Assembly (NCBI GenBank): GCA_965220385.1
Contig: OZ244825.1
Span: forward strand, 2,441,142 to 2,505,141
DNA from: Candidatus Poribacteria bacterium
GTDB lineage: Bacteria; Poribacteria; WGA-4E; PCPOR2b
Direction of reading: 5' to 3'
Length of the DNA stretch: 64,000 bases
The notes under the pieces were generated by a model. The model saw only the letters and a list, made by a program, of their open reading frames with translations. It did no database searches and was not told where the DNA came from. Shown one piece after another: positions 2,438-23,597 of the stretch (positions are counted from its first letter, which is position 1; every line of letters begins with the position of its first letter). Made by a program: the position numbers and the translations under genes.

Positions 2438-3487
2438 ATGGATGCTCTCGATCTACGTCAACTGCCCGCTGCCTCTGAAGTTTATCTCTGCCATGACGAA
2501 GGCTATTTTCCTGTCATTATCAGTCCACAGGATGAAGAAATCCTTGCAATTCTGCGGGGTGGCGCGGGACATGTGGGCATCACTGGACGGCTGGATGCAG
2601 TACGCTCTCTGGATGGCGGTAAAACGTGGGAAGCACCGATTGTTATCGTGGATACCGAGGTGGATGACCGAAATCCGGCAGTGGGACAAGCTCCCGATGG
2701 AACTGTTGTGCTCGCCTACCATGCACAAGGCTCTTACAACGAAGATGGGAGTTGGGCGAGCGACTTACGTCGCGTTCAGATGCGGGTCACGCGATCTCAT
2801 GATGGTGGCGCGACATGGGAAGCATCTCAGCCGCTCAACTACACACCGATGGAAAAACACTCTGCTTATGGGCGCATCTGTACCCTAACTGATGGAACAA
2901 TGCTTATGCCGATCTATGGGAGTGCTATCCAAGAGGCTGAGCGGACGGACGACTGCGCTTACATCCTGCGCTCACGCGACAACGGCCAAACGTGGGACGC
3001 CCCCACTCTGATCGCTGTAGGTTACAACGAAACAGGACTTATCTCGTTGCCTAACGGTGATTTGGTGGTTGCCATGCGCTCTGGCGATCAACGTGCTTTC
3101 TTAGCGACATCTCGCTCTGTTGATGGTGGGGAGACATGGACCGAGCCAACCCCTGTTACTACTGACCGTGAGCACCCTGCCGACTTGACGCTGCTTTCCA
3201 ACGGATGGGTTATCCTATTCTTCGGTGTGCGGCATGAGCCTTTTGGTGTACAGGCGCTTGTCAGCAAGGATAATGGGCAGACTTGGGATGAACGGCGGCT
3301 GATTGTGTGTGACGATCTTGGTGATAACGACTTGGGTTATCCTTCCACAGTCAAGATAGGTGATCAACTCGTAACGGTGTACTACAGCGCACCGCGAAAG
3401 TGGAATGCGCCCGATTTTCGTGGCGAAGGTACTTTCGCTCGTGGGCTACTTTACAGCGAAAGTGCGTTGTTGGCAGCGGTTATGTGA
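2438..3487 (+). CDS. BNR/Asp-box repeat protein, sialidase-like (GH33-like beta-propeller)
   Basis: Four or more Asp-box motifs of the form SxDxGxTW are present (SHDGGATWE, SRDNGQTWD, SVDGGETWT, SKDNGQTWD). The RBS is GGAG. No signal peptide is seen. Confidence 0.75.
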   Translation: MDALDLRQLPAASEVYLCHDEGYFPVIISPQDEEILAILRGGAGHVGITGRLDAVRSLDGGKTWEAPIVIVDTEVDDRNPAVGQAPDGTVVLAYHAQGSYNEDGSWASDLRRVQMRVTRSHDGGATWEASQPLNYTPMEKHSAYGRICTLTDGTMLMPIYGSAIQEAERTDDCAYILRSRDNGQTWDAPTLIAVGYNETGLISLPNGDLVVAMRSGDQRAFLATSRSVDGGETWTEPTPVTTDREHPADLTLLSNGWVILFFGVRHEPFGVQALVSKDNGQTWDERRLIVCDDLGDNDLGYPSTVKIGDQLVTVYYSAPRKWNAPDFRGEGTFARGLLYSESALLAAVM

Positions 3488-3538
3488 AACGTGATATGCT
3501 TTTCGCCCTGTTAAAGATAAAGCGAGGAGGGGTGCGAT

Positions 3539-5596
3539 ATGAAAGACAAAAATAAAACCAAAGCACAACTCATTGAGGAACTGGTAGAGATGCGTCAGCA
3601 TGTTGCCGAATTAGAACAGATGGGGGCACAGTATAAGGGCACTTTGGAGAGTCTGGAACAGTCAGGCAGAACCTACTACGATCTCTACGATAACGCTCCC
3701 GATATGTTCGTCTTTGTAGACGCCAAGACAACTAACGTTATTCGATGCAATCAAACAGTAGTCCAGACGCTGGGTTACAGTAGAGAAGATATCATCGGTC
3801 ATTCTATTTTTGAAAGATATCATCCAGACTGTATCGAGGATGCTCACAGGGTATTCCAATCCTTTGTCGATACTGGTGAAGTCCGTGGTGCTGAACTTGT
3901 GTTGCAGCGGAAAGATGGGACCAAAATCGATGTGAGCTTGAACGTTTCATCAATTCGTGATGAAGAGGGAAATGTCCTTTACGGCAGGTCTGTCTGGCGT
4001 GACATCACCCGGCGTAAACGATCGGAGAAGGCACTCCGGCGGAGCGAAACGCGATACCGTACCCTGTTTGGGGAGTCCAGAGATGCTGTTTATATGAACA
4101 CCCGCGATGGCAAAATCCTTGACGTCAATCAAGCGAGCGTGGATCTGCTCGGTTTTTCCCGTGACGAATTAATCGGAATGAATGTCCGTAAACTGTACGT
4201 CTTCCCTGAGAATCGGAGTGTGTTTCAGCGGGAGATTGAGCAAAAGGGCTCCGTACGAGATTATGAATTAAAATTCCGGAGAAAGGACGGCGCACAGATA
4301 GACTGCTTGGTTACTTCAACGGTGCGTCGTGGTCCCGACGGAACGGTGTTAGGATACCAAGGCATTATTCGCGACATCACCGAGCAGATGAAAGCGGAAA
4401 AAGCACTCCATGAGAGTGAGCGGCGATTCCGTCAACTGGCGGAAAATCTGCGCGAGGTCTTCTGGCTCAGCTCCCTTGATGGAAGCCAAATCTACTTCAT
4501 CAATCCTGCGTATGAAGATATTTGGGGGCGTAGTCGTGAGAGTCTGATAGCGCAGCCAGAAACTTGGCTCAATGCTGTCCACCCGGAGGATCGGGAAGAG
4601 GTACTTGCCAATTTCGGAAAACAGAGCCGCGGCGAATTTGTCGAATACGAGTATCGGATTATGCGCCCTGATGGCGAAATTCGCTGGATAGAAGCCCATG
4701 TCTTTCCGGTCCGAAATCAAGAGGGAGAAATCTATCGATGTGCGGGGAGCGCGCAGGAGATCACCAAACGCAAACGGGCGGAAGCGCTCGCGGAATCGCA
4801 GCAGCAACAATTGATTCAGGCGGACAAAATGGCGTCGCTTGGTATCTTGGTGTCCGGAGTAGCGCACGAAATCAATAACCCAAATAATTTCATTATGCTC
4901 AACGGAGAAATCCTCTCCATGGCTTGGCAAAATGTCATGCCGATCCTCCAAAAATACTATGAAGAGAATGGCGATTTTCTTTTGGCAGGCATGCCTTACA
5001 CTCGGGCACACGAGAAAATCGGCCAACTGATTTCAGGAATATCAGAGGGCGCCACGCGTATCGGCAAAATTGTCGAGGCACTGGGCGGTTTTGCACGGCA
5101 GGACGCGGGCGATTTGAATCAATCTGTTGATCCTAACGCAGTCGTCGAATCTGCGATGGTTATTGTAAACAACCTAATTAAGAAATCCACACATAGTCCG
5201 GTCGTGGAGCTGGAAGAAAACCTGCCCACAATTCAGGGTAATCCACAGCAGCTTGAGCAGGTTATCATCAATTTAATTACCAATGCATGCCAAGCTCTCC
5301 GATCCCCTGAAAAATCCCTGTATGTTTCTACAGCGTACAATGAAACGTCGGATCTGATCACCATCAGAGTGCGAGATGAGGGCGAAGGGATTCCTCCCGA
5401 AAATTTGAACCATATCATCGAGCCCTTCTTCACTACCAAGCGTGACGCCGGCGGCACAGGCTTAGGCCTGTCAGTTTCTTATAACATTGTGAAGAATCAT
5501 GGCGGACATTTGCACTTTACTTCAAGATTTGGGATAGGTACAACTGCAACCGTCATGCTACCTGTTTCTCGTCGAAATGTGCTCGATTCGAAGTAA
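3539..5596 (+). CDS. cytoplasmic multi-PAS sensor histidine kinase (HisKA + HATPase_c)
   Basis: The 685-aa ORF has an N-terminal coiled coil, three PAS-like blocks, an H-box (HEINNP), and N, G1 and G2 boxes (GGTGLGL). No TM segments are seen. The RBS is strong (GAGGAGG). Confidence 0.85.
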   Translation: MKDKNKTKAQLIEELVEMRQHVAELEQMGAQYKGTLESLEQSGRTYYDLYDNAPDMFVFVDAKTTNVIRCNQTVVQTLGYSREDIIGHSIFERYHPDCIEDAHRVFQSFVDTGEVRGAELVLQRKDGTKIDVSLNVSSIRDEEGNVLYGRSVWRDITRRKRSEKALRRSETRYRTLFGESRDAVYMNTRDGKILDVNQASVDLLGFSRDELIGMNVRKLYVFPENRSVFQREIEQKGSVRDYELKFRRKDGAQIDCLVTSTVRRGPDGTVLGYQGIIRDITEQMKAEKALHESERRFRQLAENLREVFWLSSLDGSQIYFINPAYEDIWGRSRESLIAQPETWLNAVHPEDREEVLANFGKQSRGEFVEYEYRIMRPDGEIRWIEAHVFPVRNQEGEIYRCAGSAQEITKRKRAEALAESQQQQLIQADKMASLGILVSGVAHEINNPNNFIMLNGEILSMAWQNVMPILQKYYEENGDFLLAGMPYTRAHEKIGQLISGISEGATRIGKIVEALGGFARQDAGDLNQSVDPNAVVESAMVIVNNLIKKSTHSPVVELEENLPTIQGNPQQLEQVIINLITNACQALRSPEKSLYVSTAYNETSDLITIRVRDEGEGIPPENLNHIIEPFFTTKRDAGGTGLGLSVSYNIVKNHGGHLHFTSRFGIGTTATVMLPVSRRNVLDSK

Positions 5597-12923: not shown

Positions 12924-14087
12924 GTGGAACGTGAATCGGGAAGAGATTTTCTGTTGACTCGGGCATACGTTATCGGTAAAATGGATCTGCCTTTTTCCAG
13001 AGAGCAAACACAGATGTGGAGAGCGAAGAGGCCGTCAATGGGCAATGTGGAAGGTACGATCGAACTGGTCAAGCGCGATGTCCTGCTATCAAATTCGGGA
13101 CGATACGGCATCCCGGACGAACAGCTGCATTTCCCCTATCTGTATGAATCCAATAATGGCAACTGGTACATGACATATCGTGAGGGACCACATTTCGAAT
13201 CAACATTTGGTCCCGGCAATCGTGTCCAGTGTATCCAGTCGAGGGACAGAGGACGCACATGGCTTCCGTGGATGGGACTGGAGGTCGAACCTTTCCTGCG
13301 TCAGTTCTTTGTTACGCGGCTACAGGATGGGGGCCTTATCAGTTACCGATGCCGGATGGCAAAGCTTTATCAGTCATCTGGCGACACGCTCGAAGGCACA
13401 GCGATTATTCTGCGTTCTCAGGACGAAGGGGCGACTTGGACCCGACATAATGTGCCGGTAGCTAATCTGCCTTTCAGTTTGGGCAGCCAACTTGTCTCGC
13501 TCTGGGGACATGTGGTCGAGATGCCTGATGGGCGCCTGTTATGGCCCGTTTATAGTCGTGAAGGAAATACGATCTCTGGGGTCGTCCAATCTACAGATGG
13601 TGGGCACAGCTTTAAGTGGCTTGCGAATGTGTGCGAAGATAACACTGTCGGCGAGCGGCGTGAGCCGGGACTGATACGACTCCCCTCTGGAGAACTCCTT
13701 GCCTTAATCCGGTGTGGGACGCAACCATCTCGTCCCATGGTGGAGGTTCGCTCAGCCGATGACGGACGGACGTGGAGTTCGCCGCGCAGGCTTGCTCGCC
13801 CCGGCGTATGTCCCCAACTGATGATGCTGGGAAACGGTATCTTGGTATGCAGCTACGGTACGCGGAGATATGTGCATGTCATGGCAAGTTGGGATGGGGA
13901 AGGGGGGCAGTGGTCGGCACCCTTGGTGCTCTATGAGGGTCAAACTTCAGGCTATAGCAATCTCCAAGCGTTAGCCGATGACCGTTTCCGAGTTGTATAT
14001 CAAGAGGGATCGTTCGATGCCTATCAGGAGGGCGGCAATCGGCTTGTGCGCTCCGAGATCCAGATTAGACCGAAACGTTCGCCGTGA
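12924..14087 (+). CDS. BNR/Asp-box repeat protein, sialidase-like; start uncertain (GTG at 12924; ATG with GAGG RBS at 13038)
   Basis: Asp-boxes QSRDRGRTW, SQDEGATW, STDGGHSF and SADDGRTWS are present. This is a paralog of the 2438..3487 protein. Confidence 0.65.
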   Translation: MERESGRDFLLTRAYVIGKMDLPFSREQTQMWRAKRPSMGNVEGTIELVKRDVLLSNSGRYGIPDEQLHFPYLYESNNGNWYMTYREGPHFESTFGPGNRVQCIQSRDRGRTWLPWMGLEVEPFLRQFFVTRLQDGGLISYRCRMAKLYQSSGDTLEGTAIILRSQDEGATWTRHNVPVANLPFSLGSQLVSLWGHVVEMPDGRLLWPVYSREGNTISGVVQSTDGGHSFKWLANVCEDNTVGERREPGLIRLPSGELLALIRCGTQPSRPMVEVRSADDGRTWSSPRRLARPGVCPQLMMLGNGILVCSYGTRRYVHVMASWDGEGGQWSAPLVLYEGQTSGYSNLQALADDRFRVVYQEGSFDAYQEGGNRLVRSEIQIRPKRSP

Positions 14088-14107: not shown

Positions 14108-14968
14108 TCACTCAACTGTGGGACCGTCCCCAGCTAAGGTTGTGCGGTGAAGAACGCGCTTGTACTTCCCACGATCCCAAGACCGTCCCCGGTGTAGACA
14201 GCAACGGTTATCGTACACAACAAGGTCATGTGCCCGCCATCGGTGGCGATACACAAACTGCCGTTGTGTTGCCCATTCAAGGAGTTCTTTCAGCAGGGCT
14301 TGCCCCTCTTCGGTTGGTAAGTCGTGAACGTGGGTTGTGTATGACCCGACCAAGAGCGCCCTCTTTCCGGTTTCGGGGATGGTGCGCACCAAGCGGTGAT
14401 CAACCGGTGGGGTATCTTTCTGGAACGCGTCACTCATCAGGTTCGGAGCAATCTGCGCCCGTGAGTATGCGATGCTATGCTCGGCGATTAGTTCCTCGAT
14501 ATCTGCTTTTTTCTTGTCAGGCAGGGCTGCATAGGCGGCAGTAAGACTGGCAAACTCAGTTTCACCCCCTTCAGGCGGCACAATCTTGGCAGAAAGTAAG
14601 GAGCCACGCAAGGGTACACGCTTGAACGAGCCATCGGAGTGCCAGAGCGTGTTGGCAACAGTATAAAGTGTCCGGGGATCTTCCGGCGGAATGATGTCGC
14701 CTTTTTCGTCGAGGTTGGAGATTACCCCAATAGGTCCACCGTCACCGATTGGGTCATTTGGCATCGTCATTTCGAGTGGGCCAAACCCTTCGCTGAACGT
14801 CACGTGCTGCGCGTCAGTGATTTCTTGATCGTGGAATACGAGCACTCCATACTCGCAGAGCGCACCGCGAAGTTGCTCAAATGTTTCTGCATCGATGGCC
14901 GAAGTGATGTCAACACCTTCCACTTCCGCCCCAATATAATCTTCCAATTTCCTAATTGTCAGAGCCAT
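14108..14968 (-). CDS. TauD/TfdA-family Fe(II)/2-oxoglutarate dioxygenase
   Basis: The 286-aa ORF has HxD…H ligands (WHSDGSF, …H near the C-terminus) in the TauD fold order. The RBS is GAGGA. Confidence 0.8.
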   Translation of the reverse strand: MALTIRKLEDYIGAEVEGVDITSAIDAETFEQLRGALCEYGVLVFHDQEITDAQHVTFSEGFGPLEMTMPNDPIGDGGPIGVISNLDEKGDIIPPEDPRTLYTVANTLWHSDGSFKRVPLRGSLLSAKIVPPEGGETEFASLTAAYAALPDKKKADIEELIAEHSIAYSRAQIAPNLMSDAFQKDTPPVDHRLVRTIPETGKRALLVGSYTTHVHDLPTEEGQALLKELLEWATQRQFVYRHRWRAHDLVVYDNRCCLHRGRSWDRGKYKRVLHRTTLAGDGPTVE

Positions 14969-15057: not shown

Positions 15058-15969
15058 ATGCGTCGTTTTAATCGAACCCCCTGTTACACCGGACCCAATG
15101 ACCCCGAAAGAGGTCAGGTCCGCGGTGTCCTTGAACTGGGCGAAACTGTCATCATCGAAACTATCGGTGGAGCAGATAACGACTATGAAGCAGCGGGCGA
15201 AACCAAGGCTGGAATGATAACCTCCGGCCAAAGCCATCAGCGCGATTCTCGTCCCGGCGGACCCTTTGAAATAAAGGGCATTGAGCCGGACGACTGGGTT
15301 TCCATTGAGATTATCGATATTGAGGTGGCACCCTACGGTTTCTATCGAAACGGCGGTCCCAACTGGGGCAATTGGCGATGTGTAGCACCAGTGCGTGACG
15401 GACTCATCCACTTTCCACCTGACTTCGTTGTGCCGGTACGACCAATGATCGGGGTAGTTCAACTTGCATCGTGGGCACCCAGCGGGATAGACCACGGCGG
15501 GAATATGGACTTCAACGCCATTCAACCCGGTAGCACCGTGCATATCCGCGCCCAAAAACCCGGCGGTCTTCTCCACCTCGGTGATGTCCATGCCCGGATG
15601 GGAGATGGAGAATTGACCGGTGCCGGGGTCGAAATCGACTCAGCCATCACCCTCAAGGTGGATCGTTCACCCGGTTTTCCGAACAGTGCGCCCGTGGTGG
15701 AAACGACTACTATGGTAGAGAGTGCCGAAGAGTATCTCACCAGCGCCATAGCGGACAGTTGGGGAGAGGCACTAAGATCCGCTTGGACCGAGATGGTTGC
15801 GTTGATTGTCGATCGCTACGACACCAGCGTAGAATACGCCAACATGATCGTCGGCACAATAGCGGATGCCAGACCCGGTTTTGCTACCGGCTACATGGGC
15901 GGCTACCTGACCTGCCAATTAGCCGTAACCAAAGAATTGCGCCGAACCGGGAAACCGTACGAACCATAA
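15058..15969 (+). CDS. acetamidase/formamidase (FmdA/AmdA) family amidohydrolase
   Basis: The 303-aa ORF has characteristic FmdA_AmdA blocks. The RBS is a strong AAGGAGAG. Confidence 0.7.
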   Translation: MRRFNRTPCYTGPNDPERGQVRGVLELGETVIIETIGGADNDYEAAGETKAGMITSGQSHQRDSRPGGPFEIKGIEPDDWVSIEIIDIEVAPYGFYRNGGPNWGNWRCVAPVRDGLIHFPPDFVVPVRPMIGVVQLASWAPSGIDHGGNMDFNAIQPGSTVHIRAQKPGGLLHLGDVHARMGDGELTGAGVEIDSAITLKVDRSPGFPNSAPVVETTTMVESAEEYLTSAIADSWGEALRSAWTEMVALIVDRYDTSVEYANMIVGTIADARPGFATGYMGGYLTCQLAVTKELRRTGKPYEP

Positions 15970-16182: not shown

Positions 16183-17175
16183 CTACAGCCCCAACGCTTC
16201 CGCCTGCCTACAAGCGGACTGAATGAGATTCCGCACCCGATCGCCCTTATTGTGCTCCGGTCGTTCATGCAGCCAGCCTAACAGTGCCAGTGACCGGATT
16301 AACAGGAACATCGGAAGTAGCTCAATAGCGGCTTCAGAAAGAGCGCGCTCCGAACGGTAGCCTGCAATGAGTGCGTCGCGAGCGACCTCGAAATGGGGTG
16401 GCTTCCGATACGCGTCGAGTGCAACGGCAATTTCGTACTGATGCCAGCCGAAACCAGAGTCGTCAAAATCGATTACGTGCAACTGCTCTCCGTTGACGAG
16501 CAGATTATGAGGGTGCAGATCCGCGTGGATTAGGCTATACGTTCCTCCCTCTTTGCCGTAGTCGGACAGCACACGATGGATGGCACGACGGGCATTGAGG
16601 ATATGCTCCCGCTCCGCTGCTTTCATCTCTGGTAGGATCCAAAAGGGACCCCAAAAGGGCGTATCTCCCATAAAACCGTCCGCATCGAATGCGTGTCGTT
16701 GGAAACCTTCCGGAATCTGCCAACTGACCGCCTGATTGTGAATTCTGGCAGCGATGTGTCCGAGTTGGTTGAAATGCAGCGCGAGCGCTTCCATATCGGG
16801 TGCCTGATCCATGATGCTCGATAGCGTTACCCCATCAAACCATTCAACAATTCCGACGTGCCGGGTTTCCGTTGATTTAGGCACGGGAACTGTCGCGTAG
16901 CCACGACCATCACGGGTCAGTCGGGGTAACGGCACACCTATACCCGCCCGTTTCAGCGCAGCTGTCCACTGCTGCTCGGAGTTCAGTTCCGCGAGCGTAT
17001 GATAGCCGGGCCGATGGATGCGAAGCACATAGGTTTCGCCGGCATCTGTATCAACACGAAACACGGTGTTTTCAGAGATAGAGATTAGCTTTAGCTGCAC
17101 GGCAGAAATATCCCATTCGTCCAACGCTCGCTCGGCAATCGCCCGCAATGTGTCGCGGTTAAGGGGCTGTGCCAT
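16183..17175 (-). CDS. aminoglycoside/choline-kinase-type phosphotransferase (APH family; homoserine-kinase-II/hydroxylysine-kinase-like)
   Basis: A Brenner motif HADLHPHNLL and the DFDDSGFG Mg-binding loop are present. The start MAQPL (GGAGGAG RBS) overlaps the upstream aminotransferase stop by 17 nt. Confidence 0.75.
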   Translation of the reverse strand: MAQPLNRDTLRAIAERALDEWDISAVQLKLISISENTVFRVDTDAGETYVLRIHRPGYHTLAELNSEQQWTAALKRAGIGVPLPRLTRDGRGYATVPVPKSTETRHVGIVEWFDGVTLSSIMDQAPDMEALALHFNQLGHIAARIHNQAVSWQIPEGFQRHAFDADGFMGDTPFWGPFWILPEMKAAEREHILNARRAIHRVLSDYGKEGGTYSLIHADLHPHNLLVNGEQLHVIDFDDSGFGWHQYEIAVALDAYRKPPHFEVARDALIAGYRSERALSEAAIELLPMFLLIRSLALLGWLHERPEHNKGDRVRNLIQSACRQAEALGL

Positions 17176-18442
17176 AAATCTCCTCCACGATCTCTGCGAA
17201 CGCGGTGAGGAACAGATCGGCGTGTTCACGAGAAAACACTAAGGGCGGACGAATCTTGAGAACATTGCGCAGTGATCCGGCACTGCCGATAAGAAAACCT
17301 TTGTCCTTCAGGCGATTGACGAATACCGTGGCACCATCACGGTCAGGTGTTTTAGTGTTGTGGTCACTTACCCATTCCAGCCCGATGAATAGTCCGTGTC
17401 CACGAACTTCTGCCATAGGTGGACAATGCGGCTGAAGTTTGGTCAATTCAGAGCGGAGATAATCACCAACACGGGTAACATTCTCTCGCAGATTCTCAGT
17501 TTCTATCACGTCTAACACTGCCATACCTACCGCCGCCTGTAACGGACTGGAAGCAAAGGTATTGAAGTAGCGTTTACGGTCGCGGAAAGTATCCACCAGT
17601 TCCGTTCGCGCAACAGTCCCAGCCAAGGGCAGTCCGTTACCCATCGGCTTGCCCATTGTGACAATGTCCGGCACGAAGTCCATCACCTCGTAACCCCACC
17701 AGCTGCCCGTCCGACAGAAGCCTGCCTGTACCTCGTCTGTGATGAACAGCCCCCCTGCATTGCGAACCATTTCGGCTGCCTTTGGCATAAAACCGTTCGG
17801 GATATCGGGCAGACCTTCGTTGGCGAGGATCGGACAGACCAACATACCCGCAAAGGGGATATTATTGGCAGCAAAACTGTCAAGTGCCATGTGGACTTCC
17901 GATAGGTAGAGATCGGTCAATTCGGATTCCGATACGCCTTCTCGCAACGGACGGTAACGCTGCGGATACGGGATCGGGTGAATCTCAGGATCCCCATCCC
18001 TGGCGCGTGTGAGCTTGCCGACCTCTGCACTGTTACCGTGATACGCCGCATCGGTGCAGATGATCCCCCGTCCGCCGGTTGCGATACGAGCCATGCTCAG
18101 GGCGACTTCGTTGGCTTCTGTTCCGGTACAGGTGAACACAACACTTGCCAACTCCTCGGCGTGTTGGTTGGTCAGACGCTCGGCATAATCGAGAACGCCT
18201 TCGTGCAGATAACGGCTGTGGACGTTGAGTGTACTTGCCTGCCGATGCATCGCTTCGACCACATGCGGGTGGCAATGCCCCACACAGGGGACATTGTTGT
18301 ACATGTCAAGATAGCGATGTCCATCAGGATCAAACAGCCATACCCCTTCTCCACGCACGATGTTGACTGCCTCTTGGTAGAAAAGTGGTGTCCCGGTGCC
18401 TAGCAGTCGTTCACGACGTGCAAGTAAGTCGGTTGTCGTCAT
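17159..18442 (-). CDS. class-III (ornithine/GABA-type) PLP-dependent aminotransferase-like protein
   Basis: The protein is about 427 aa and has class-III aminotransferase architecture, including a PLP-binding Lys region (…TMGKPMGNG). The start is MTTTD with a GAGGA RBS. Confidence 0.8.
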   Translation of the reverse strand: MTTTDLLARRERLLGTGTPLFYQEAVNIVRGEGVWLFDPDGHRYLDMYNNVPCVGHCHPHVVEAMHRQASTLNVHSRYLHEGVLDYAERLTNQHAEELASVVFTCTGTEANEVALSMARIATGGRGIICTDAAYHGNSAEVGKLTRARDGDPEIHPIPYPQRYRPLREGVSESELTDLYLSEVHMALDSFAANNIPFAGMLVCPILANEGLPDIPNGFMPKAAEMVRNAGGLFITDEVQAGFCRTGSWWGYEVMDFVPDIVTMGKPMGNGLPLAGTVARTELVDTFRDRKRYFNTFASSPLQAAVGMAVLDVIETENLRENVTRVGDYLRSELTKLQPHCPPMAEVRGHGLFIGLEWVSDHNTKTPDRDGATVFVNRLKDKGFLIGSAGSLRNVLKIRPPLVFSREHADLFLTAFAEIVEEIYGTAP

Positions 18443-18544
18443 AATTTCCTCGTTTGGTAATCTGTAATTGCAATTTTTGGTCCCTGCTTTGTTTCTCACC
18501 CGATCCCCTTATCTATCTTTGCACATCGTTCTTCAGGGATGCAG

Positions 18545-20167
18545 CTACCTGTAGCAGACATGTAATTCAACCTTTTCAATCTGGATATGTCCGAAAGCCG
18601 CAGGTAGCTGCTGCTTTAACCCCACACCGACGAGATTGGCGCCCACCGCAAGGTAACCCGGTTTTACAGCAAAAATCAGCCAATTCTTAAAGGTCTCATT
18701 TGAAGTTTCTACTGTTTCAGTGTGAGGAGCATCGAGAAGGATGTTATTCAACCTCACCTCGACCCTTGATCCAAGGGTCTCAAGTCTTTCGTCCAAAGAT
18801 AAAGCCTCACCCGCCTCATCAGAGATAGCTATTCGTAGCGTTATCTGATCAATTTCTGTTGAAGCAGCGTTCACATCATCTGCTACGTTCAGCGTGAGCA
18901 GCCTGTCTTCCTTACCATCACCCTCCAACGCTGCGGGCAATGATGCTAGCATGTTGGTCTGGAAATACATGTGCCGAGGGGTATTCCAGTTCGCCGGCGA
19001 TGGCACGACATATTCAGCGTGTCCACCGCCGCGCCGTTCAACAAAAAATACCTTGTCCACCTCTTTGAGCGTTGCGGGTCTGCCAATTTCACTGAAGATT
19101 TTGCGCTGCGTTTGCCACCTGGGCGAGGGGCTAAGATCCAGATTTTCTGCCGATTGTGGGGAGGACACCATTAAATTGAAGGTGTGCATACCGTCCGGAT
19201 TCTGACGCCACCAGTTTGCGCAGGCTCCGCGCCAGATTTCGAGGTCCGGTTCTCTATACCCATCGGTGGAGTGGTGATCGTCAAAGCTGGGGTAGAGTTT
19301 GATAGGGGTTTCGTTGGTGATATGGCGAAAGGCAGCGATATCCGCGTTCGCCGTGCGTGTGCCAACCACGAAAATATCGACCAGAAAATCTTGTGCCCAA
19401 GCTTCCACGTCCATACCGTCGAAGTGGCAGCCCATGGGATCTTCCGGAACGCGGGCTGCCAACAGCAATGGTCGTCCACGTTTTTCCCCAATGTCGAGCA
19501 GTGTGGTGCGTATATCGCGCATGAAATCGGTCAGTATATCACGGTGCAACCACTGCTCCTCCGGGAACAGCACCGGGATCCGTGCGAAATCGATATGGAT
19601 GCCGTCGAAGTCGTACATCTCCGCTACTTCGCGTACTACGTTCAGCTTCAGGTCACGAACCCCCTTAAAGGAAAAATTCCAGTAGGGGTGCCACTTATAA
19701 ATTAGCCAGTCCGGATGCTCAGCTTTTAACGGAATCGGCTGATCAAACGGGCGAGGCGGATCAAACATATCGTCGTTGTCCGATCCGTTGATTCGGTAGG
19801 AGAAAAAAACCTCCCGTCCACGTTTCTTTGCCTCGGTCAACAGTACCTCCACCGGATCTATGCCGATTTCCCACCACCTCGGAAAGACATTCTCGGTATA
19901 CGGAATCACGTCACTGGGCCAGACCGCTGTATTCCCTTCACCCCACTCAAACCAGATGCTGTCGATCTGGTTCGGATGTTGGTCAAGGCGACTCATGTAA
20001 AAGTCGATGATTTTCTTTAACCGTTCTGTTCCAACCTCATCAGTCCTGAATACGTCGTTAGCCAACACATCGTCTTGGAAGATAATTCGACGCTGCCGGT
20101 TGATAGCTTCAATATGTTCGGGGCTGATAGTCAGTCCGTTATGAGCCGCTGCATCTGATGAATTCAT
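18545..20167 (-). CDS. glycoside-hydrolase-like family 10 (GHL10/DUF187-type TIM barrel) protein
   Basis: The motif DGIHIDFARIP matches the GHL10 DG(V/I)HLDYIRYP signature. The start is MNSSD with a GGAG RBS 6 nt upstream. Confidence 0.5.
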   Translation of the reverse strand: MNSSDAAAHNGLTISPEHIEAINRQRRIIFQDDVLANDVFRTDEVGTERLKKIIDFYMSRLDQHPNQIDSIWFEWGEGNTAVWPSDVIPYTENVFPRWWEIGIDPVEVLLTEAKKRGREVFFSYRINGSDNDDMFDPPRPFDQPIPLKAEHPDWLIYKWHPYWNFSFKGVRDLKLNVVREVAEMYDFDGIHIDFARIPVLFPEEQWLHRDILTDFMRDIRTTLLDIGEKRGRPLLLAARVPEDPMGCHFDGMDVEAWAQDFLVDIFVVGTRTANADIAAFRHITNETPIKLYPSFDDHHSTDGYREPDLEIWRGACANWWRQNPDGMHTFNLMVSSPQSAENLDLSPSPRWQTQRKIFSEIGRPATLKEVDKVFFVERRGGGHAEYVVPSPANWNTPRHMYFQTNMLASLPAALEGDGKEDRLLTLNVADDVNAASTEIDQITLRIAISDEAGEALSLDERLETLGSRVEVRLNNILLDAPHTETVETSNETFKNWLIFAVKPGYLAVGANLVGVGLKQQLPAAFGHIQIEKVELHVCYR

Positions 20168-20420
20168 AATAGTCTCCAGCGATTTCAAAGTCTTGCGTCC
20201 AGTTACGGATAGCATAGTTGCATCAGAAATTATATCAAAACCAAGAGAGATTTAGAACAGAAATCGTGAGTTGACAGGAGCCCACAGAGCGAACGCGGAT
20301 TCAACATTTTGCTCATTTTTCTGGCATAGCCCATGTTAAGAAGTTGTGCGACAGAATCGGTACTTCCTATCCCGACTGTACTCAGAAACTGATGAACAGT
20401 GGTGTTCACGTTTTACAGCC

Positions 20421-20696: not shown

Positions 20697-21773
20697 ATGG
20701 CAGAAATGCACTGTTTCAACGCAAGCTATCTGCATGCAGTGACGCGACAACTGTTTCTGGCAGCGGATACGCCGCGTCATATCGCTGAGGATGTCGCTGA
20801 AATCTTGATTAACGCCAACCTCGCTGGGCACGATTCGCACGGCGTGCTCCGCATCCCCGGCTATCTAAGCAGTATCTCAAGTGGGGGGACTCAACCTGCC
20901 GCTGAACCAGGGGTGTCCAACGAAACCACCAATACCTTCCGTATTGACGGGAGGGACGGTTTTGGACACTACACTGCTCGACAGGCAATGGAACGGGCGA
21001 TTGAGAAGGCAAAGGCTGCGGATACCTGTGCTGTGAGTTTTATCAATACCGGGCATATCGGTCGACTCGGTGAATATGCGGAGCAGGCGACACGTGCGGG
21101 GTGTATCGGCATCATCACCTATGGCGGCGGTGCACGGGACAGAGGGGGTACTGTGCCTTTCGGGGGCGCGCGCGGTGCTCTCGGCACCAATCCGATTGCG
21201 GTCGGTGTGCCAACCGGGGACGACTGTCCATTCATCATTGATTTTGCTACCAGTATGATTGCCGCGGGTAAAGTTTCGGTCGCTGCAAGCATGGGTGTTG
21301 ATCTGCCTGAAGGTTGTATTGTGGACAAGCACGGCAACCCTAGCGTTAAGACAGCGGACTTCAGTGATGGCGGATCTCTGTTAGCGTTTGGTGGGCATAA
21401 GGGTTACGCATTCTCCCTCCTTGTATCCTTGTTCGCCGGTCTGTCTGGTAACTTTGATATTGAGGCCGCTTCCATGGGCAGTAACACGTTGATGCAGGTT
21501 ATCAACATCAGTGCCTTTACGCCATTAGAACCTTACCAACAGGGGGTTCGCGCGTTTCTCGACGGAATTAAGGCTATACCATCTGCACCCGGTTTTGACG
21601 AAGTGCTGGTTCCGGGTGACTTTGAATATCGTTCCCGCTCCCAACGACTTGCTGACGGGGTCAATGTTCCCGATACTATCTATCGTCAACTTCAGGAATG
21701 CGCGGAAAAATTGAACTTCTCCCTGAGCGAAGATCTTGTCGAACCCGCCGATGCGGAACGATACCAAACGTGA
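20697..21773 (+). CDS. Ldh_2-family (malate/L-lactate dehydrogenase family 2) NAD(P)H-dependent oxidoreductase
   Basis: The 358-aa ORF carries the GHDSHG motif typical of the Ldh_2 family, which includes ureidoglycolate, sulfolactate and Pip2C/Pyr2C reductases. Confidence 0.8.
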   Translation: MAEMHCFNASYLHAVTRQLFLAADTPRHIAEDVAEILINANLAGHDSHGVLRIPGYLSSISSGGTQPAAEPGVSNETTNTFRIDGRDGFGHYTARQAMERAIEKAKAADTCAVSFINTGHIGRLGEYAEQATRAGCIGIITYGGGARDRGGTVPFGGARGALGTNPIAVGVPTGDDCPFIIDFATSMIAAGKVSVAASMGVDLPEGCIVDKHGNPSVKTADFSDGGSLLAFGGHKGYAFSLLVSLFAGLSGNFDIEAASMGSNTLMQVINISAFTPLEPYQQGVRAFLDGIKAIPSAPGFDEVLVPGDFEYRSRSQRLADGVNVPDTIYRQLQECAEKLNFSLSEDLVEPADAERYQT

Positions 21774-21789
21774 AACGGAGGAAAATACT

Positions 21790-22650
21790 ATGGATGCCGA
21801 ATGTTTACAGCACGTTCTGACAGAGGAAGAGCGCGCCAATTTTGAGCGGGACGGATTCATTGTGGTCAAGGATGCCCTGCCGGCTTCAATGGTTGAAGGG
21901 CTTGTTGAGGTAGTAGACCGTCTTGGTGCCTGCGAAGACTTTCTGGGGAAGGATGATCTACTGCTGGAACTCATCGATTGGCACCGGACATTTCCCAAAG
22001 TTTGGGGAATTCTCGGCTGGAACATCCACTCCTACTACACGCAGATGCTCGTTACGCCTCCAGAGGATGAGGAGCACCAACGTACAAAGCACAGACGAGG
22101 CTGGCATCAGGACAGCGACCGCATAAACGCCGATATCGAGCCGGGACCCCAGCCACGTATCTCAATCAAAGTGGGATACTTCTTGACAGATCTCACACAG
22201 GGTGGATACGGCAACTTTAGCGTGCTCCCTGGGAGCCAGCTCAAAAGAGAGATTGAATTACCTGCCGATGGGGTTTCGGATCCAGAGGAAGCGATAGAGA
22301 TTAAAGGACCGGCGGGGACTGCGGTCATTTTCGATCGGCGACTCTTTCACGCACGCGGCTGGAACCTGTCCGAGGTGACACGAAAGGTCCTGTTCGTAGG
22401 CTACAGCCATCGATGGATCCATCCGAGAGATGAGCGAACGGTAGCGCATGTTATGGAGCGTTCTAATCCAATCCGCAGACAGCTGCTCGGTGCGAAAACA
22501 CGGGCAATGGGCACCTCATCGCCTTCGGACAAGGACGTCCCGCTTCGTTCCTGGATTAAGGAACATTTGGGCGAAGAGGTAGTTACCGATAACTACGCTC
22601 GCATTGTTGGTGCACCTTCGGTAACTTTTGGACGAAACCACACCCAGTGA
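21790..22650 (+). CDS. PhyH-family Fe(II)/2OG dioxygenase (first member of a tandem pair)
   Basis: The start MDAECLQH follows a GGAGG RBS. It is about 65-70% identical to the next ORF and contains HxD (WHQDSD) and a distal His. Confidence 0.75.
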   Translation: MDAECLQHVLTEEERANFERDGFIVVKDALPASMVEGLVEVVDRLGACEDFLGKDDLLLELIDWHRTFPKVWGILGWNIHSYYTQMLVTPPEDEEHQRTKHRRGWHQDSDRINADIEPGPQPRISIKVGYFLTDLTQGGYGNFSVLPGSQLKREIELPADGVSDPEEAIEIKGPAGTAVIFDRRLFHARGWNLSEVTRKVLFVGYSHRWIHPRDERTVAHVMERSNPIRRQLLGAKTRAMGTSSPSDKDVPLRSWIKEHLGEEVVTDNYARIVGAPSVTFGRNHTQ

Positions 22651-22772
22651 TTTGTCATAACCACGCAAGTTGACAAGTTTGCCGTAGAAGCTTTACCTCG
22701 ATTAGGGACGGATATGTGAAAGATTGAGTTCCATTCGACAAAAACCAATCGGATGGAGTGAGGAGGTTGATC

Positions 22773-23597
22773 ATGGATAGCGCATGTTTGGAACACTGTT
22801 TAACAGAGCAAGAGCGTACCCAGTTTGAACGAGATGGATTCATTGTAATCGAGAACGCACTTCCAGCGCAAATGGTTGAAGGGCTTATCAATGCTGTGGA
22901 CAGCGTGAAAGCCGGCGTGGATTTCATAGGCAAAGATGATCGATTCCTAGAACTGGTCGATTGGCACCGAACCTTTCCCAAAGTCTGGGGCATACTCGGC
23001 TGGAACATCCATCTGTACCACACACATATCACAGTGACGCCGCCAGTACCATTGGAAGATAGGCCCTCAAAGAAGCGCCTTCACTGGCATCAGGACAGTG
23101 GTCGCGTGAATTTAGACATTGAAACGATACCCGCACCACGCATTTCTGTGAAGATAGGCTATTTCCTAACCGATGTTTCTGAAGGAGGACGGGGTAACTT
23201 TAGCGTGATACCCGGTAGCCATCTGGTGGATGAGGTTGAATATCCCGCCGATGGTGTTTCCAATCCACCGGAGGCGCATGAGGTTCGCGTCCCTGCGGGC
23301 ACAGCGGTCATCTTTGACCGTCGGATTTGGCATGCGGGCGGGTGGAATTTCTCGGATATTACACGCAAGGTGCTATTCGTTGGCTACAGTCTCCGATGGT
23401 TCCATCCGAGGGATGCGATGACCGTCTCTCACTACATGGATCGATGCGATGCGATCCAGCGGCAGTTGCTCGGCTCGAAAACTGGTAACTTAGGACTAAC
23501 GTCGCCGAGAGAGGAAGATGTTCCGCTTCGTGAATGGATGCGAGAGCACTTGGGTGAGGAGTCAATCGCTGATCGTTCAGCCAGAAATCTCACGTAA
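22773..23597 (+). CDS. PhyH-family Fe(II)/2OG dioxygenase (second member of the tandem pair)
   Basis: The start MDSACLEH follows a GAGGAGG RBS. It is a paralog of 21790..22650. Confidence 0.75.
   Translation: MDSACLEHCLTEQERTQFERDGFIVIENALPAQMVEGLINAVDSVKAGVDFIGKDDRFLELVDWHRTFPKVWGILGWNIHLYHTHITVTPPVPLEDRPSKKRLHWHQDSGRVNLDIETIPAPRISVKIGYFLTDVSEGGRGNFSVIPGSHLVDEVEYPADGVSNPPEAHEVRVPAGTAVIFDRRIWHAGGWNFSDITRKVLFVGYSLRWFHPRDAMTVSHYMDRCDAIQRQLLGSKTGNLGLTSPREEDVPLREWMREHLGEESIADRSARNLT

Follow-up and report, generated by a model that had tools for sequence, protein, structure and literature searches.

Adjacent genes for a class-III pyridoxal phosphate enzyme and an APH-fold kinase in Candidatus Poribacteria: a predicted kinase/phospho-lyase module for amino alcohols

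The conversion of small amino alcohols to aldehydes via a phosphorylated intermediate was described in the biochemistry of the 1970s, in which an amino alcohol kinase and an amino alcohol O-phosphate phospho-lyase (EC 4.2.3.2) from Erwinia and Pseudomonas were found to convert ethanolamine and 1-aminopropan-2-ol, in two steps, to acetaldehyde and propionaldehyde, respectively. To our knowledge, the genes for these activities have never been linked to sequences. In this report, we describe a pair of adjacent genes from a member of Candidatus Poribacteria, a sponge-associated phylum, whose products are predicted to catalyze the same two steps. The pair is found at positions 16183 to 18442 on the minus strand of a stretch of 64,000 nucleotides (contig OZ244825.1, assembly GCA_965220385.1, positions 2,441,142 to 2,505,141) that is referred to below as the window. 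The first gene encodes a class-III pyridoxal 5'-phosphate (PLP) enzyme, and the second encodes a kinase with the APH fold. We consider it likely, from the sequences, that the two proteins constitute a kinase and a phospho-lyase, and that the translationally coupled genes are a self-contained module for the catabolism of a 1,2-amino alcohol with the general structure H2N-CH2-CH(OH)-R.

The closest characterized systems come from bacteria and from animals. The phospho-lyase A1RDF1 from Paenarthrobacter aurescens TC1 was reported, together with structures (PDB 5G4I and 5G4J), by Cuetos et al. (2016, cited in PMC6750192). The animal phospho-lyases ETNPPL (AGXT2L1) and PHYKPL (AGXT2L2) and the hydroxylysine kinase HYKK were described by Veiga-da-Cunha et al. 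(2012, cited in PMC8154272 and PMC5714238), and the adjacency of kinase and aminotransferase genes in bacteria guided this 2012 identification of the vertebrate phospho-lyases (PMC5714238). An (S)-1-amino-2-propanol kinase (APK) was described from the RMM aminoacetone-utilisation microcompartment of Mycolicibacterium smegmatis by Mallette and Kimber (2018, cited in PMC8007038).

The gene for the PLP enzyme (17159..18442, minus strand) starts with the ATG at 18442, ends with the TAA at 17159, and encodes a protein of 427 amino acids that begins with MTTTD. A Shine-Dalgarno-like GAGGA (18447..18451, minus strand) is positioned 4 nucleotides 5' of this ATG. The kinase gene (16183..17175, minus strand) starts with the ATG at 17175, ends with the TAG at 16183, and encodes a protein of 330 amino acids. 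The end of the first gene and the start of the second overlap by 17 nucleotides (17175..17159, minus strand), an arrangement of the kind associated with translational coupling, and the Shine-Dalgarno-like GGAGGAG of the kinase gene (17180..17186, minus strand), 4 nucleotides 5' of its ATG, is located within the gene for the PLP enzyme. These features were read directly from the sequence and agree with an earlier note on this DNA, which had described a 427-residue class-III PLP enzyme with an MTTTD start and a GAGGA ribosome-binding site, followed after a 17-nucleotide overlap by an APH-fold kinase. The same protein lengths (427 and 330 amino acids) and the same 17-nucleotide overlap were found in a 91%-identical contig with independent gene calls. 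The relatives of highest identity (90-94%) are metagenome-assembled genomes (MAGs) of Candidatus Poribacteria, and one contig among them is syntenic with the window over 20 kb. The open reading frames (ORFs) that overlap the pair in other frames or on the other strand gave no family match.

The PLP enzyme is a fold-type I protein that matches the Pfam family Aminotran_3 (PF00202) over residues 26-419 with an E-value of 9e-78. Its best match in the PDB is 5g4i, the A1RDF1 phospho-lyase (330 bits, ~40% identity), and the second is 6tor, the human ethanolamine-phosphate phospho-lyase ETNPPL (303 bits, 38% identity). The next protein family, dialkylglycine decarboxylase (DGD), was found at 177 bits, and GabT, ArgD, and OAT did not exceed 146 bits. 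The top NCBIfam models are the C-terminal halves of two bacterial kinase-aminotransferase fusion proteins, PRK06148 (403 bits) and PRK06149 (363 bits), and the next model scored 233 bits. The scores against the transaminase models were all below the respective cut-offs: 188 versus 507 for TIGR00700 (GABAtrnsam), 213 versus 410 for TIGR00707 (argD), and 174 versus 378 for TIGR01885. PbfA, the (R)-1-hydroxy-2-aminoethylphosphonate ammonia-lyase, was tried as a candidate and rejected, with a score against NF049939 of 199.5 bits and a cut-off of 525.

A neighbor-joining tree was constructed from 24 sequences (422 columns, 200 bootstraps) that included GabT, ArgD, BioA, and PatA from E. coli K-12. 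A1RDF1 and ETNPPL were found in one clade, with 100% bootstrap support, together with the window enzyme, ten members of its family, and the rhizobial enzymes that are paired with a kinase. GabT, ArgD, PatA, BioA, and DGD were located outside of this clade, with DGD as its sister group. An unverified AGXT2 sequence, which serves as a lead only, was placed outside of the 97%-supported clade of A1RDF1 and the window enzyme, and it retains the transaminase arginine and the longer loop described below.

The alignment with GabT showed that the residues required for the cofactor are kept in the window enzyme. K265 aligns with the Schiff-base lysine of GabT (Lys268), and D236 aligns with Asp239; in class-III PLP enzymes this aspartate binds the pyridine nitrogen. 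Arg398 and Arg141 of GabT, by comparison, are replaced by K396 and N137, respectively, and both arginines are also replaced in A1RDF1 and ETNPPL. We take these two residues, from the literature on the E. coli GabT, to be the carboxylate-binding arginines, and their numbering was confirmed. The enzyme also contains the motifs GKPMGNG, FNT, and LKIRPP, and its YNNVPxVGH loop (NN-loop) is two residues shorter than that of the transaminases. A phospho-lyase signature was defined as the 47 columns in which A1RDF1 and ETNPPL are identical to one another and different from all five known non-phospho-lyases, a definition that is not circular for the window enzyme. The phospho-lyase residue was found at 26 of these 47 positions in the window enzyme and at 2-7 of the 47 in the other class-III enzymes that had not been used for the definition (0-7 with the defining non-phospho-lyases included). 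There are 37 residues that are invariant within the family of the window enzyme and differ from both A1RDF1 and ETNPPL, among them C53, N208, W248, L271, S299, Q302, and W357. Most likely, the PLP enzyme belongs to the ETNPPL/A1RDF1 clade, and phospho-lyase activity with an O-phospho-amino alcohol is predicted for it.

The kinase matches the Pfam family APH (PF01636) with an E-value of 1.3e-27 and contains the motifs LIHADLHPHNLL and IDFDDSGFGW. The best match in the PDB is 6ef6 (172 bits), a protein from M. smegmatis (97% to P0121) that is encoded in the RMM microcompartment locus; on these two grounds, 6ef6 is taken to be the (S)-1-amino-2-propanol kinase of Mallette and Kimber (2018). The window kinase is 37% identical to the M. 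smegmatis APK over 299 amino acids (162 bits, E = 7e-52). The catalytic motifs H217-x-D219-x4-N224 and D236-F-D-D239 are present, and in an alignment of 21 partner kinases their residues H217, D219, N224, and D236-F-D-D239 do not vary. The ATP-binding lysine of strand beta3 in the N-lobe (VLKIS in HYKK) is replaced by an invariant arginine (LRIHR) in all 21 of the aligned bacterial APK-type kinases; this residue is R55 in the window kinase (codon ~17013-17011), and the experimentally active APK from M. smegmatis also has an arginine at this position.

The similarity of the window kinase to human HYKK, for which a real database protein was used, is confined to the catalytic loop (33 bits, 28% identity over 92 amino acids). 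Against the kinase halves of the PRK06148 and PRK06149 models, HYKK scored 195 and 134 bits, respectively, and the window kinase scored 36-41 bits; APK and the kinase from the A1RDF1 locus did not exceed 41 bits, and the rhizobial partner kinase gave no match. All of the bacterial partner kinases form a single group from which HYKK is remote (19% identity). The window kinase was therefore rejected as an orthologue of HYKK. It was also rejected as an aminoglycoside-resistance kinase, since no APH(3')- or APH(2'')-like structure was found among the PDB matches at E <=0.001, which consist of 6ef6, amicoumacin kinases, and homoserine kinase only. The protein is best described as a predicted amino-alcohol kinase of the APK type whose likeness to HYKK would be that of a shared fold.

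The conservation of the gene pair was determined by a scan of species-representative genomes, in which 80 loci with a homologue of the PLP enzyme (60-94% identity) were identified; together with the locus L001 this amounts to 81 loci. The 80 loci are distributed among Poribacteria, Caldilineaceae, Dehalococcoidia (Chloroflexota), Acidobacteriota, Alpha- and Gammaproteobacteria, a spirochaete (Spirochaetota), an actinomycete (Actinomycetota), and one Bathyarchaeia MAG. An APK-type kinase is encoded directly downstream and on the same strand in 79 of the 81 loci, including two in which the kinase is frameshifted. One locus (L072) ends at a contig edge and is hence outside of the testable set, and the other (L076), in a MAG from the Alphaproteobacteria, encodes a PLP enzyme with 62% identity (3967-5220) that is preceded directly by a HYKK-type APH kinase (2895-3938), with no APK-type kinase downstream. 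An adjacent APH kinase is thus present in 80 of the 80 testable loci. The start of the kinase gene overlaps the stop of the PLP-enzyme gene by 4-23 nucleotides in about 47 of 78 loci and is located within 30 nucleotides of it in 17 more. The identities of the two partners co-vary, with a Pearson r of 0.89 across 19 pairs. The adjacency in every testable locus, the frequent overlap of start and stop, and the co-varying divergence argue for one shared function. At a greater distance (~49% identity for the PLP enzyme and ~38% for the kinase), the pair is carried in the same order by at least 23 rhizobial plasmids. A cultured relative, Reyranella sp. CPCC 100927, has a PLP enzyme with 63% identity to that of the window.

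The two frameshifted kinases were found in two long-read MAGs (Chloroflexota and Dehalococcoidia; L049, 9310-10288, and L064, 9286-10228), where the kinase is split over two to three frames next to an intact PLP-enzyme gene, as a result of either pseudogene formation or indels in the assembly. The upstream kinase of L076 matches Pfam APH with an E-value of 1e-25 and scored 95 bits to HYKK and 255 bits to PRK06148, and the gene order is that of the PRK06148 fusions. L076 was considered as an exception to the kinase linkage and rejected as such, with its HYKK-type kinase directly upstream. Judged from the sequences, the kinase partner has been replaced here by a non-orthologous one within a single subfamily of PLP enzymes, a hint that both types of kinase can serve this subfamily. 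It was also observed that PLP enzymes from Poribacteria, Chloroflexota, Acidobacteriota, Gammaproteobacteria, and the MAG labeled Bathyarchaeia (L009-L046) have 65-76% identity to one another. This pattern across phyla would fit a horizontal transfer of the two-gene module or, for the archaeal MAG, a mis-binning. Many of the source MAGs have names that we take to be those used in sponge-microbiome studies.

The earlier note had preferred a kinase/phospho-lyase module to a GABA or ornithine transaminase accompanied by a resistance kinase, and phylogeny, active site, and co-conservation all support this preference: the PLP enzyme clusters with A1RDF1 and ETNPPL and not with GabT or ArgD, the carboxylate-binding residues of the transaminases are not intact, and an adjacent APH kinase is retained throughout. 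The hydroxylysine kinase-like partner that had been suggested did not hold up, since the window kinase and HYKK have only the fold in common and the kinase is of the aminopropanol-kinase type.

The reaction sequence proposed for the pair is based on homology and, for the second step, on the active-site residues as well. The APK-type kinase would phosphorylate the hydroxyl group of the amino alcohol with ATP. The PLP enzyme would form an external aldimine with the amino group of this product, remove the alpha-proton, and eliminate phosphate. The resulting enamine would be hydrolyzed to the aldehyde R-CH2-CHO and ammonium. In the net reaction, the amino alcohol, ATP, and H2O would be converted to the aldehyde, NH4+, Pi, and ADP. 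The most likely substrate is one that is small and ubiquitous, either ethanolamine, which would yield acetaldehyde, or 1-amino-2-propanol, which would yield propionaldehyde. The small amino alcohols are favored because the nearest characterized kinase utilizes 1-amino-2-propanol and the nearest characterized lyases utilize phosphoethanolamine. The similarity of the kinases does not, however, fix the substrate of the pair, because the partner enzyme in the RMM locus belongs to another class-III lineage and because equally similar kinases in cultured bacteria are found in quite different contexts.

A1RDF1 is the nearest solved relative of the PLP enzyme, shares a clade with 97-100% support and the same active-site replacements with it, and has an APK-type kinase at its locus. 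On plasmid pTC2, however, this kinase is 29% identical to the window kinase and is divergently transcribed, whereas the genes in the window are co-directional and overlapping, and the permease, SDR (short-chain dehydrogenase/reductase), TetR regulator, and aldehyde dehydrogenases of pTC2 have no counterparts with the window pair. The animal enzymes share the clade of the PLP enzyme, as compared for ETNPPL, and the logic of phosphorylation followed by elimination; HYKK is of a different APH lineage, and the animal genes are not arranged in an operon. The M. smegmatis APK is the closest characterized kinase, with the same catalytic motifs and the arginine in place of the beta3 lysine, but the RMM locus also contains shell proteins, an aldehyde dehydrogenase, an SDR, a permease, and a GntR regulator, none of which is found in the window. 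The class-III partner in the RMM locus (L085, 4767-6047) is 25% identical to the window enzyme, has the phospho-lyase residue at 3 of the 47 signature positions and a glutamine at the position of GabT Arg398, and falls outside of the clade. This second class-III lineage seems to have been recruited independently to partner an APK-type kinase. A class-III enzyme on a plasmid of Pseudomonas sp. MPC6 (L084, 12048-13367) is listed alongside the RMM-type lineage. In the PRK06148 and PRK06149 fusions (~1000 amino acids), the C-terminal half corresponds to the PLP enzyme, of which these models are the top NCBIfam match, but the kinase is N-terminal and of the HYKK type, whereas the window encodes separate proteins with the PLP-enzyme gene first.

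Homologous pairs in cultured bacteria were found within or next to gene clusters for the degradation of arylacetates. In Rhizobium binae p1 (L082, 8983-11292) and in Shinella (L083, 8992-11257), the pair is associated with hpa clusters for 4-hydroxyphenylacetate (hpaD/E/H/I). In Mesorhizobium AR07 (L092, 6477-10279), it is preceded by an APC permease and followed by paaX-paaABCDE, and the kinase of this pair is the closest plasmid-borne relative of the window kinase (46% identity). The A1RDF1 locus on pTC2 (L091, 6086-10882) contains, in addition to the APK-type kinase, permease, SDR, and aldehyde dehydrogenase, a phenylacetaldehyde dehydrogenase (feaB). APC permeases and aldehyde dehydrogenases accompany the pairs in the arylacetate clusters. 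The hpa, paa, and feaB contexts suggest aryl-ethanolamines, such as octopamine and phenylethanolamine, as substrates for these subfamilies, and they raise the possibility that A1RDF1 naturally acts on something other than phosphoethanolamine. A search of the accessible literature found no paper tying octopamine or phenylethanolamine to a phospho-lyase.

An aryl-ethanolamine that is converted to an arylacetaldehyde was also considered for the window pair, with the clusters in R. binae, Shinella, and AR07 and the phenylacetaldehyde dehydrogenase near A1RDF1 in its favor. The identity of the pairs in these clusters to that of the window, however, is only 39-50% for the PLP enzyme and 29-41% for the kinase, the recurrent neighbors of the subfamily to which the window pair belongs include no hpa or paa family, and the 37 family-invariant residues set this subfamily apart from A1RDF1 as well as from ETNPPL. 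We regard such a substrate as improbable here. Much the same must be said of a hydroxylysine route like that of HYKK and PHYKPL, in which 5-phosphohydroxy-L-lysine, derived for example from sponge collagen, would be converted to 2-aminoadipate semialdehyde. The chemistry and the clade of the PLP enzyme are those of the animal system, collagen is abundant in the hosts in which Poribacteria live, and L076 demonstrates that a PLP enzyme of this subfamily can be found with a HYKK-type kinase in place of one of the APK type. The window kinase, however, is related to HYKK through the catalytic loop only, and against the HYKK-like portion of the fusion models it scores a fraction of what HYKK does; genes for lysine or aminoadipate catabolism are not linked to the pair in the 64-kb window or in the flanking ORFs of its relatives. 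This route is thus given a small chance. A broader proposal can be given somewhat more weight, although it remains doubtful: that the stand-alone pair represents a large subfamily (PLP enzymes 60-94% identical, at least 7 phyla) whose substrate is not ethanolamine or aminopropanol but another 1,2-amino alcohol derived from the host or the environment, such as the 5-hydroxylysine of collagen, and that the clade that includes A1RDF1 provides a general ATP-driven route for the deamination of amino alcohols. Under this proposal, octopamine and phenylethanolamine may be the natural substrates in soil bacteria, feeding into the hpa and paa pathways.

It could also be argued that the PLP enzyme is not a phospho-lyase. 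The public annotations of its homologues ("aspartate aminotransferase family protein", "4-aminobutyrate aminotransferase-like") and of the kinases ("phosphotransferase", "Ser/Thr kinase RdoA") are compatible with an ordinary class-III transaminase of the GabT, ArgD, or ornithine type that happens to lie alongside an unrelated antibiotic-resistance or protein kinase, and AGXT2-type transaminases are fairly close relatives. With equivalog scores far under the cut-offs, both carboxylate-binding arginines gone, a position outside of the transaminase branches of the tree, a kinase that is always adjacent, often overlapping, and co-varying in divergence, and no aminoglycoside phosphotransferase structure that matches this kinase at E <=0.001, this explanation is very improbable. 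Still less probable is a lyase or racemase that acts on a non-phosphorylated substrate, such as a PbfA-like ammonia-lyase, a DGD-like decarboxylase, or an amino-acid racemase, with the kinase acting elsewhere. Reactions of this type do occur in class III and among the weaker matches to the window enzyme, but the score for the Leu/Met racemase model is 169 with a cut-off of 800, DGD is a sister group outside of the clade, and the obligate linkage to a kinase would be left without a reason.

Several observations weigh against a kinase/phospho-lyase module for amino alcohols, which we nevertheless favor. The PLP partner of the closest characterized kinase is of a different class-III lineage. Neither the 64-kb window nor the flanking ORFs of the relatives supply a transporter, an aldehyde dehydrogenase, or a regulator to go with the pair. 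The true transaminases of the AGXT2 type are near neighbors of the phospho-lyase clade, and the identity between 5G4I and an AGXT2-like enzyme from a plant is 36% (PMC6750192). Finally, phospho-lyase function is a prediction from sequence both for the window enzyme and for its relatives with 60% identity or more.

The genes that surround the pair were found to be conserved only within Poribacteria. A GH156 exosialidase-like ORF of 556 amino acids (18545-20215, minus strand; 6rzd, E = 1.3e-14; weak match to Pfam GHL10) is located 102 nucleotides upstream of the pair and, being on the same strand, could be co-transcribed with it. This protein has no obvious signal peptide. A TauD-family dioxygenase (14108-14968, minus strand) and a protein of ~300 amino acids similar to acetamidase/formamidase (15058-15969, plus strand; best PDB match 2ii1, 4.7e-22) are genuine members of their families, as the earlier note had stated, but they are at lower coordinates, past the 3' end of a pair that is transcribed from the minus strand, and not just upstream of it. 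A BNR_2 (sialidase-like propeller) protein (12924-14087, plus strand) is encoded ~2 kb beyond the kinase. For both the GH156-like and the BNR_2 genes the synteny is limited to Poribacteria. Fe(II)/2-oxoglutarate dioxygenases are plentiful nearby, with at least two PhyH proteins in addition to the single TauD, and a dehydrogenase of the Ldh_2 family is also present; the PhyH and Ldh_2 genes occupy the intervals 21736-22650, 22758-23597, and 20697-21773, all on the plus strand, and extra copies of PhyH are found in the syntenic locus L001.

The nitrogen-scavenging island that the earlier note had proposed around TauD and formamidase is not supported, because no neighbor besides the pair itself is conserved. 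The linkage of TauD and acetamidase/formamidase is a matter of synteny within Poribacteria only, and the flanks are unrelated outside of this lineage. When the ORFs from the 81 loci were clustered all against all, the only clusters that spanned lineages, other than antisense artefacts, were those of the two genes themselves. In bulk Pfam scans of the flanking ORFs outside of Poribacteria, no family was found more often than in 5 of 111 upstream ORFs (Amidohydro_2) or 3 of 112 downstream ORFs; aldehyde dehydrogenase was found in 1 of 111, MFS in 2 of 112, and TauD in 2 of 112 downstream ORFs, and acetamidase/formamidase was not among the 25 commonest families. The ORFs were called by a greedy longest-ORF procedure that made some antisense picks in GC-rich genomes, which lowers the counts but would not hide a conserved neighbor. 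A tblastn search of the whole 64-kb window gave no match at E <=1e-3 to RMM shell, EutN, Aldedh, SDR, or permease proteins, and none was found in L001; queries with the aldehyde dehydrogenases, permeases, and SDR from the pTC2, AR07, and Rhizobium binae loci likewise found no homologue in the window. An RMM-type microcompartment was thus rejected for the window in view of the absence of shell genes. Rfam gave no match at E <=1, and hence no riboswitch, between 15500 and 21000, and sites resembling promoters and terminators occur at the frequency expected by chance.

Pathways of this kind, and the use of gene adjacency as a marker for phospho-lyases, are already known, and the result is unsurprising to a specialist. 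What is new is descriptive: the tight conservation of the stand-alone pair across phyla, the mixing of two kinase lineages with two class-III lineages, and the arylacetate contexts of the relatives. Phospho-lyase modules appear to be assembled in a combinatorial manner, in that kinases of the APK and HYKK types both pair with enzymes of the phospho-lyase clade and, in the mycobacterial microcompartments, the partner of the APK type comes from a second class-III lineage. The relatives linked to hpa and paa genes provide a testable hypothesis for the bacterial catabolism of octopamine and phenylethanolamine and for the natural substrate of A1RDF1. Thousands of homologues of the pair carry no public name more specific than "aspartate aminotransferase family protein" or "phosphotransferase", and their recognition as phospho-lyase and kinase would correct the metabolism reconstructed for Poribacteria and other uncultured symbionts. 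For these organisms, the predicted module would add a means of using amino alcohols as a source of carbon and nitrogen that depends neither on B12 nor on a microcompartment.

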